Below, piece after piece: positions 15,787-16,016 of a stretch of 64,000 bases of DNA. A program made the translations under genes and the position numbers. The notes beneath the pieces are model-generated. The model saw nothing but the letters and a program-made list of their open reading frames with translations. It was not told the DNA's origin and searched no databases. Position 1 is the stretch's first letter. Each line of letters opens with the position of its first letter. Source of the stretch: an uncultured Candidatus Saccharibacteria bacterium (GTDB lineage: Bacteria > Patescibacteriota > Minisyncoccia > Phycocordibacterales > UBA9973); NCBI GenBank assembly GCA_964606285.1, contig CAZSFP010000002.1:43890-107889 (forward strand), given 5' to 3'.

Positions 15787-15852
15787 TACAAGATAGTATT
15801 GCAAAGATATTAACATCTTGATCAGGCTAAAAGGGAATGTATACTGTATGTA

Positions 15853-16016
15853 GGGTTACTTGGCATATTACCTAGAAACACATATTTCTCGGGAGCCGGC
15901 AGTAAGATAAGCGATTATCTCTCTTGTCTTCAGGCACCCACTTAGCTTACGGCTAAGGTAATATTCCCAGGTAGCCCTAAGTAAAAATCTCTCGCAAGAG
16001 GGATTTTTACTTTTTG
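15853..16016 (+). ncRNA. Candidate structured ncRNA or cis-regulatory leader of unknown class. It is closed by a 24-bp long-range helix, has two internal hairpins, and has its own terminator.
   Basis: A TTGATC-16-TGTATACT promoter sits at 15818-15845. The 5' strand AGGGTTACTTGGCATATTACCTAG pairs with the 3' strand CTAAGGTAATATTCCCAGGTAGCCCT. Two internal hairpins are AGATAAgcgATTATCT and CTTAGCttacgGCTAAG. A terminator GTAAAAATCTCTCgcaaGAGGGATTTTTAC + T-run follows. Confidence 0.35.

Follow-up and report, generated by a model that had tools for sequence, protein, structure and literature searches.

The region between ndk and a small membrane-protein gene in the 64,000-nucleotide stretch of DNA that we analysed (the window) holds a conserved, stand-alone and independently transcribed RNA gene, with a promoter and a terminator of its own as read from the sequence. 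We hold with good confidence that its product is probably a compact and divergent 6S RNA (ssrS-type) of a Paceibacteria (CPR) bacterium, and a functional 6S homologue. This identification draws on the architecture of the RNA, its hallmark letters, matches to the Rfam 6S family (RF00013) that fall in register, the linking position of one orthologue (L070), conservation of a housekeeping type, and a 5′ bubble strand that appears unpaired.

6S RNA, known from E. coli as SsrS and from B. subtilis as 6S-1, mimics an open promoter and holds back RNA polymerase. It is typically ~185 nt long and accumulates as an abundant, stable transcript, as a rule from one or two genes per genome; Bacillus has two such RNAs. 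The RNA described here most likely represents this known class in a new, shortened form, and not a new RNA class.

The RNA gene, its fold and its neighbourhood

The features of the locus are collected in Table 1. The gene that follows the RNA had been called VanZ-like in an earlier reading made from the sequence only, a label that we could not support; the profile match of its product is to DUF2238, at 26.2 bits and thus just below the cutoff of 26.4. The product of ndk is 193 aa long, and its Pfam NDK match is split into two stretches, which indicates that it carries an insertion absent from the usual, ~140-aa NDK; thousands of CPR proteins share this long form at 75–82% identity. Judged by its ndk protein, the window belongs to the Paceibacteria, a class of the CPR (with source names such as Paceibacterota, Nomurabacteria and Zambryskibacteria). 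Directly upstream of ndk lies a gene for a coupling-protein-like ATPase with weak DUF87/HerA, TrwB and TraG-D_C matches around a P-loop.

Table 1. Features of the RNA gene and of its surroundings, by position in the window
Feature	Position	Strand	Details and evidence
907-aa protein	12413–15136	+	Coupling-protein-like ATPase
ndk	15205–15786	+	Pfam NDK, E 9e-36
Intergenic region with RNA gene	between ndk and the gene at 16049–16441	+	
Promoter of RNA gene, sigma-70-type	15818–15845	+	-35 TTGATC (15818–15823), 16-nt spacer, -10 TATACT (15840–15845)
RNA body	15850–15979	+	~130–135 nt; R1/R3 model scores, fold, covariation
Closing stem P1, 5′ strand	15851–15873	+	P1a 15851–15863, P1b 15865–15873; presumed template for product RNA (pRNA)
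Central bubble, 5′ strand	15874–15890	+	AGAAACACAUAUUUCUC, A/U-rich; the conserved block CCUAGAAC straddles the stem edge
Terminal arm P2	15891–15939	+	Base GGG-A-GCC...GGC-A-CCC, internal loops, GCGA end loop (CUUG in most homologues)
Central bubble, 3′ strand	15940–15955	+	ACU, then P3
Hairpin P3	15943–15955	+	UUAGC-UUA-CGGCUAA
Closing stem P1, 3′ strand	15956–15979	+	15967–15979 pairs with P1a (13 bp), 15956–15964 with P1b (9 bp), 1x2 internal loop between; fold and covariation
Intrinsic terminator	15980–16015	+	14-bp hairpin (15980–16011), then TTTT (16012–16015); from fold
Second promoter, for DUF2238-like gene	16014–16042	+	TTGGAA-17-TATACT; not part of the RNA
Small membrane-protein gene, DUF2238-like	16049–16441	+	Pfam DUF2238, below cutoff
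Beta-CASP/RMMBL metallo-beta-lactamase RNase	16448–17830	+	Pfam Beta-Casp, E 1e-36
Two short basic ORFs	17991–18555	-	114 aa and 62 aa; resemble ribosomal proteins L20 and L35 (translations by eye)
tmRNA gene	20471–20857	-	RF00023, 114 bits; separate gene, ~4.5 kb from the 6S-like gene

A tmRNA gene also occurs in this neighbourhood in two of the homologous loci, L028 and L060, pointing to one conserved region that houses two housekeeping RNA genes. In two other related genomes, matches to the T-box leader below threshold are located a few kb 3′ of the RNA (L011, 3971–4101, 43.6 bits; L004, 3962–4161, 27.3 bits), and the window has no equivalent above threshold.

For the promoter of the RNA gene, the -35 hexamer, the 16-nt spacer and the -10 hexamer noted earlier were all found, although the “TG” proposed with them directly abuts the -10 hexamer and so does not form a canonical extended -10 element (TGn). 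Transcription is predicted to start at ~15850–15852. In 33 of 37 homologues, a sequence of the form TTGnnn-16-TAnAnT ends 4 nt 5′ of a conserved G, and 36 of the 37 carry a hairpin and T-run 3′ of the RNA; the promoters are close to consensus and the terminators strong. The terminator of the window copy, which had also been proposed as an independent element, was borne out as a stem-loop followed by TTTT, with the next ORF beginning 33 nt past position 16016; it was recognised from the fold, and the simple motif scanner that found the promoters did not list it. The 9-mer ATGTATACT, a -10 box preceded by a fixed ATG, occurs three times on the forward strand of the window against 0.39 expected (10117–10125, 15837–15845 and 16034–16042), and two of these copies form part of the promoters that precede the RNA and the DUF2238-like gene. 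This recurrence may reflect a lineage-specific promoter consensus.

In the conserved fold of the RNA, a long closing helix leads through a large asymmetric bubble to a terminal arm, and the small hairpin P3 lies on the 3′ strand of the bubble. The minimum free energy of 15848–16016 is -69.7 kcal/mol, compared with -37.8 +/- 3.8 for shuffled sequences (z = -8.4, with none of 200 shuffles as good), while the reverse strand folds more weakly (z = -5.7). The sequence-only reading had proposed a helix of roughly 24 bp with one mismatch between the ends of the RNA, enclosing two stem-loops; we found 22 bp, close to that length, and both enclosed stem-loops, P2 and P3, are kept in homologues. The window copy has 17 nt in the 5′ strand of the bubble, one more than the family consensus (16 nt). 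A weak A/U hairpin within it (15874–15889) appeared in the window minimum-energy fold only, and it was rejected because 56.5% of the corresponding cells in homologues are paired, which is the level of shuffled sequences; without comparative support for this hairpin, we take the 5′ bubble strand to be single-stranded. The RNA body measures ~105–170 nt across the family, P2 alone ranging from ~45 to >100 nt, and the window copy reaches ~165 nt only if the terminator hairpin is retained.

Homologues were sought in 80 ndk loci of 12 kb, no two of them from the same species-level genome. Searching with the single window sequence (nhmmer) recovered the RNA in ~25 of the 80 loci, with each match covering the full RNA and lying 3′ of ndk on the strand of that gene. 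A covariance model built from 18 close sequences of the window’s own group (R1) found it in 55 of the 80, and scored the window at 98.1 bits on the forward strand and 30.1 on the reverse. With a broader core model (R3), one match was obtained in each of 66 of the 80 loci, always on the forward strand and downstream of ndk, and 38 of these matches are sequences outside the model’s training set. The window copy was among the training sequences of R3, which scored it at 51.3 bits (E 1.5e-9) as the sole match in the 64-kb window.

The covariation analysis that the sequence-only reading had called for, run on 37 aligned homologous intergenic RNAs, supported the structure. Standard pairs accounted for 95.8% of cells, compared with ~36–48% when partners were slid by 1–3 columns, and compensatory (two-sided) changes were found at 22 of 34 pairs; none of 500 shuffles reached the observed values. 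In P1 (helices 1–2), 12 of 17 pairs carry compensatory changes and 96–97% of cells are paired. The three G-C pairs at the base of P2 are invariant (37/37) and its inner helices (3–6) are rich in compensatory changes, while in P3 (helix 7) 99.3% of cells are paired, with covariation at pair 4. The letters GGGA and CCCAC are likewise the same in all 37 sequences, and the longer ACCCAC(C/U)U is invariant too. A search for the signature GGGA-N30-60-ACCCACYT gave a single match in the window and a single one in each of 42 loci, every time at the RNA.

Eleven loci (L015, L027, L031, L037, L040, L043, L052, L062, L065, L077 and L078) form a subgroup with longer RNAs of ~140–200 nt (for example L065, 2715–2856). 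In these RNAs both arms of the 3′-bubble hairpin (AGCAAG...GUUGC) find a complement in the 5′ bubble strand, GCAACUUGC, so that an alternative fold could close the bubble. In one of them, L052, the terminal arm contains an insertion of ~60 nt.

Correspondence with the 6S consensus and Rfam searches

We compared the family consensus with that of RF00013, the latter taken from a scan of E. coli ssrS, and observed that the invariant letters of the family are the most conserved letters of RF00013, at equivalent structural positions. Read from 5′ to 3′, the 5′ strand of the inner closing helix is ...gcccCuGAgCC in RF00013 and ...AUUACC in the family; the 5′ bubble is gAaaauuuuuauaaua (16 nt) and UAGAACAAUAUUUUAU (16 nt), respectively; the terminal arm is GGG-a-gcccuc...gagggc-a-CCC and GGG-A-GCC...GGC-A-CCC; the 3′ bubble is ACCUggaAcagCa and AC(C/U)UAGC-loop-GCUAy; and the 3′ strand of the inner closing helix is GGuUCaAgggc and GGUAAU. 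The family’s ACCCAC(C/U)U thus matches the “CCCACCU” of RF00013 at the start of the 3′ bubble, and the apical CUUG loop is common to both consensus sequences. The longer subgroup carries “UUGGUGA-hairpin-UCCGA” in its terminal arm, as does E. coli 6S. Distant Paceibacteria copies read CACCCACCUGG and L070 reads GCACCCACCUGUGAAAGCAGG; the 3′ core of the latter is identical to the RF00013 consensus at 19 of 25 positions. E. coli ssrS itself deviates from this consensus at the base of the arm, where it has GAA/UUC instead of GGG/CCC.

The RNA therefore displays the rod-like 6S fold, with its long closing helix, large bubble and terminal arm, and the letters that flank the 6S bubble (GGG/CCC, ACCU, and an A/U-rich 5′ bubble of ~16 nt). 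It falls short of the 150–200 nt usual for 6S RNA, the window body at ~130 nt being ~50 nt below the typical length, and neither the window copy nor any orthologue scanned singly reached the RF00013 gathering threshold of 46.4 bits, a score that is a curated model cut-off and not a biological property. The sequence-only reading had seen no 6S hallmark by eye. Here we disagree, given that GGGA...ACCCAC(C/U)U around an A/U-rich bubble is the hallmark of RF00013 and that orthologues match this model below threshold.

The scan against Rfam (cmscan) proposed in that reading gave a divided answer, as the window copy had no match, while three orthologues scanned singly matched 6S below threshold. At Rfam gathering thresholds the whole window yielded only the tmRNA and one tRNA, with no match at the RNA gene, and a permissive scan of 15750–16080 (E <= 10) returned chance-level matches only (rli52, PyrD leader, MicA and others) and no RF00013. 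When 11 whole homologous loci were scanned together under permissive settings, nothing was found at the RNA sites, and a targeted scan of orthologue L062 gave no 6S match. Of the four orthologues scanned singly, L062 included, three had RF00013 as their best or sole credible family: it was the top match of L070 (20.5 bits, E 0.015, model positions 1–187), the sole match of L033 (15.6 bits, E 0.22, model positions 41–146), and one of two matches of L037 (10.4 bits, E 3.6, model positions 36–151). In all three alignments the register is the same, with GGGAG and CACCCACCU placed on the model’s GGGag and caCCCACCU at high posterior probability. These E-values include a factor of 4227 for the number of families, and 6S had been named as the hypothesis before the scans; for a single pre-named family, the chance probabilities are roughly 4e-6 (L070), 5e-5 (L033) and 9e-4 (L037).

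R1, which was built from the window’s close group only, finds the L070 RNA at 31.5 bits (E about 1e-3), and since L070 in turn matches RF00013, a transitive link runs from the window RNA through L070 to 6S. The models that we built did not reach further: neither R1 nor R3 matched E. coli ssrS (L082), and a model of the longer GCAACUUGC subgroup (R2; group G), in which a helix peculiar to these RNAs carries most weight, found neither E. coli ssrS nor the window RNA. As R2 misses the window RNA, the links between subgroups rest on synteny, the shared signature, and R1 and R3.

Alternative explanations

Several points count against a 6S identity: all RF00013 scores (10–20 bits) lie far below 46.4, with none for the window copy and L062; the RNA is short; our models do not reach E. 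coli ssrS; P3 and several loops are more conserved than open-promoter mimicry alone requires; and a canonical 6S gene may lie elsewhere in these genomes, our searches having covered the window and the ndk loci. One alternative is a lineage-specific structured RNA that is not 6S, such as an RNA subunit or ligand of the beta-CASP RNase or of another protein, whose 6S-like letters arose by convergence or chance. The lack of any Rfam match at gathering score and the failure of our own models to detect E. coli ssrS would suit such an RNA, as would the conserved CCUAGAAC, the UAG/CUA of P3 and the CUUG/GUGG apical loop, which suggest specific tertiary or protein contacts, and the presence of a beta-CASP/RMMBL RNase gene at most two genes downstream in ~39 of 56 loci. 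We nevertheless regard this explanation as unlikely. The invariant GGG-A...A-CCCACCU occupies the structurally equivalent place in the 6S consensus, RF00013 was the leading family in three of four orthologues and always in one register, the length and composition of the bubble fit 6S, and the gene linkage can be explained as plain synteny among related genomes.

The sequence-only reading had favoured a riboswitch or leader, with an aptamer and an expression platform, while naming a stand-alone small RNA as the other option, and it is the latter that the comparative data uphold. A transcription-attenuating leader for the DUF2238 membrane-protein gene would account for a multi-stem junction closed by P1 with a terminator directly after it, and for the DUF2238-like gene being next in 32 of 56 loci. 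However, a new promoter lies between the terminator and that gene, which argues that the RNA is not its leader; in the window fold, the terminator hairpin shares no strand with P1 or the rest of the aptamer-like part, and no antiterminator is evident; and a P1 of 22 bp is far too stable for switching. The next gene also varies: in 13 of the 56 loci it is the beta-CASP/RMMBL RNase, in 9 it is something else, encoded on the opposite strand in four cases, and 2 loci end without a downstream ORF. No riboswitch family was matched in permissive scans of the window region and the 11 loci. The promoter and terminator retained in nearly all copies, together with the second promoter and the variable next gene, instead identify a stand-alone RNA gene, and we judge the leader explanation very improbable. 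The least probable of the alternatives, to which we give hardly any credence, is another universal small RNA in disguise (SRP RNA, 5S rRNA, a Y-RNA or tRNA-like RNA, or an RNase P fragment). The pairing of the 5′ and 3′ ends would fit such an RNA, and the asymmetric loop, symmetric loop and tetraloop of P2 loosely resemble SRP helix 8 by eye, but five targeted scans and the 11-locus scan gave no SRP, 5S, Y RNA, tRNA or RNase P match at E <= 10, nor did the tmRNA model match at the RNA site in these same scans, in line with the earlier remark that no hallmarks of SRP, tmRNA or RNase P were recognised by eye. The variable length of P2 also speaks against it. Among individual resemblances, the SRP helix-8-like loops of P2 were rejected as the GGAA/AGCA motifs of SRP are absent and no model matched; a permuted 5S rRNA, suggested by “CCCACCU” and “CCGAAC”-like strings, because the order is wrong and no model matched; a tRNA-like or Y RNA for want of a T-loop; and a ykkC-like 5′ end (“UAGGGUU”) because nothing else fits. 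A helix between the 5′ CUAG and the 3′ CUA block was discarded as well, since the registers do not pair.

Predicted mode of action and relation to known 6S RNAs

If the RNA is a 6S RNA, as we consider probable, then by analogy it would act as an open-promoter mimic in the active-site cleft of the housekeeping sigma-factor holoenzyme, where the terminal arm would take the place of upstream DNA and the closing helix that of downstream DNA (a downstream-duplex mimic), and its occupancy of the holoenzyme would lower transcription as growth slows. Upon the return of NTPs, the polymerase would transcribe a short product RNA from the 5′ bubble and closing-stem strand (around CCUAGAAC/AUUACC), and this product would open the inner closing helix. 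The 3′ strand set free in this way (GGU...) would then extend the P3 hairpin, and the RNA would be released. When 14 nt of the presumed template were blocked in silico, P3 gained 1–3 bp in most of the 13 homologues folded, capturing the freed GGU. This lengthening parallels B. subtilis 6S-1, in which a small 3′-bubble hairpin is pre-formed and is stabilised by the product RNA (PMC8876501). A 6S-1 truncated to 78 nt, in which only the bubble and short arms remain, still goes through the whole cycle of polymerase binding, product-RNA synthesis and release (PMC8876501), which makes a natural 6S RNA of ~130 nt plausible.

The RNA shares with E. coli SsrS and B. subtilis 6S-1 (BsrA) the rod-like closing helix, large central bubble and terminal arm, the A/U-rich 5′ bubble strand of 16–17 nt and, as in RF00013, the three G-C pairs with an A-A mismatch at the base of the terminal arm and the “CCCACCU” that opens the 3′ bubble. 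It also resembles 6S-1 in its pre-formed small 3′-bubble hairpin, extendable into the 3′ strand of the closing stem (PMC8876501), and the 6S RNAs of lactic acid bacteria in being encoded by a monocistronic gene with its own promoter and terminator (PMC8414754). In contrast to RF00013 6S RNAs, the body measures ~130 instead of ~185 nt, with a shortening of both arms and without the large internal loop that the model has in the closing arm, and scores are 0–20 bits where 46.4 are needed; the strongly conserved CCUAGAAC at the edge of the 5′ bubble is a further difference. Gene order differs too, E. coli having zapA-ssrS-fau and the order here being ndk, the RNA, DUF2238 and the beta-CASP RNase. 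The engineered 6S-1 variants 6S78 and 6S82cp similarly combine a central bubble with short flanking helices and are shortened yet functional, but these artificial RNAs have no -35-like region at all and bind about ten-fold more weakly (PMC8876501), whereas the natural RNA still has a ~20-bp terminal arm whose internal loops are conserved.

Synteny has brought to light other 6S genes, with a promoter and terminator of their own, that covariance models had overlooked (PMC8414754). The non-canonical 6S candidates of Weissella (PMC8414754) and Ms1 of actinobacteria (PMC9130861) resemble the present RNA in having been missed by standard covariance searches and recognised through a conserved gene neighbourhood together with promoter and terminator. 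Unlike the Weissella candidates, which are without the canonical rod-and-bubble fold (PMC8414754), the Paceibacteria RNA keeps it, and Ms1 differs in being much longer and in binding core polymerase and not the holoenzyme (PMC9130861).

RNase J1, a member of the same superfamily as the beta-CASP RNase, matures and degrades the 6S RNAs of B. subtilis (PMC10578484), and a functional tie between the 6S-like RNA and the adjoining nuclease is possible by analogy. We propose tentatively, and with considerable doubt, that the 6S RNA of Paceibacteria is a naturally miniaturised one, as short as ~105–135 nt and with a pre-formed 3′-bubble hairpin, and that its gene is kept beside that of a beta-CASP (RNase J-like) nuclease that possibly matures or degrades it. 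Alternatively, the RNA may have taken on another role and ceased to act on the polymerase.

RF00013 and the pipelines that depend on it miss this gene across a whole CPR class, with the consequence that such genomes would appear to lack 6S RNA, and our alignments A4 and A6 could seed an extended 6S model. We found no relevant report on 6S RNA or structured non-coding RNAs in Patescibacteria, CPR or Parcubacteria in the literature, our coverage of which was incomplete. If the RNA is a true 6S, the miniaturised Paceibacteria versions would be among the shortest natural ones, and at ~130 nt would complement the in vitro result that the 6S cycle needs no more than a bubble with short flanking helices (PMC8876501). 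The very small regulatory repertoire of ultra-small bacteria would then still include RNA-mediated global control of their housekeeping polymerase, and bacteria with reduced genomes and a probably symbiotic way of life would retain a dedicated RNA brake on RNA polymerase.
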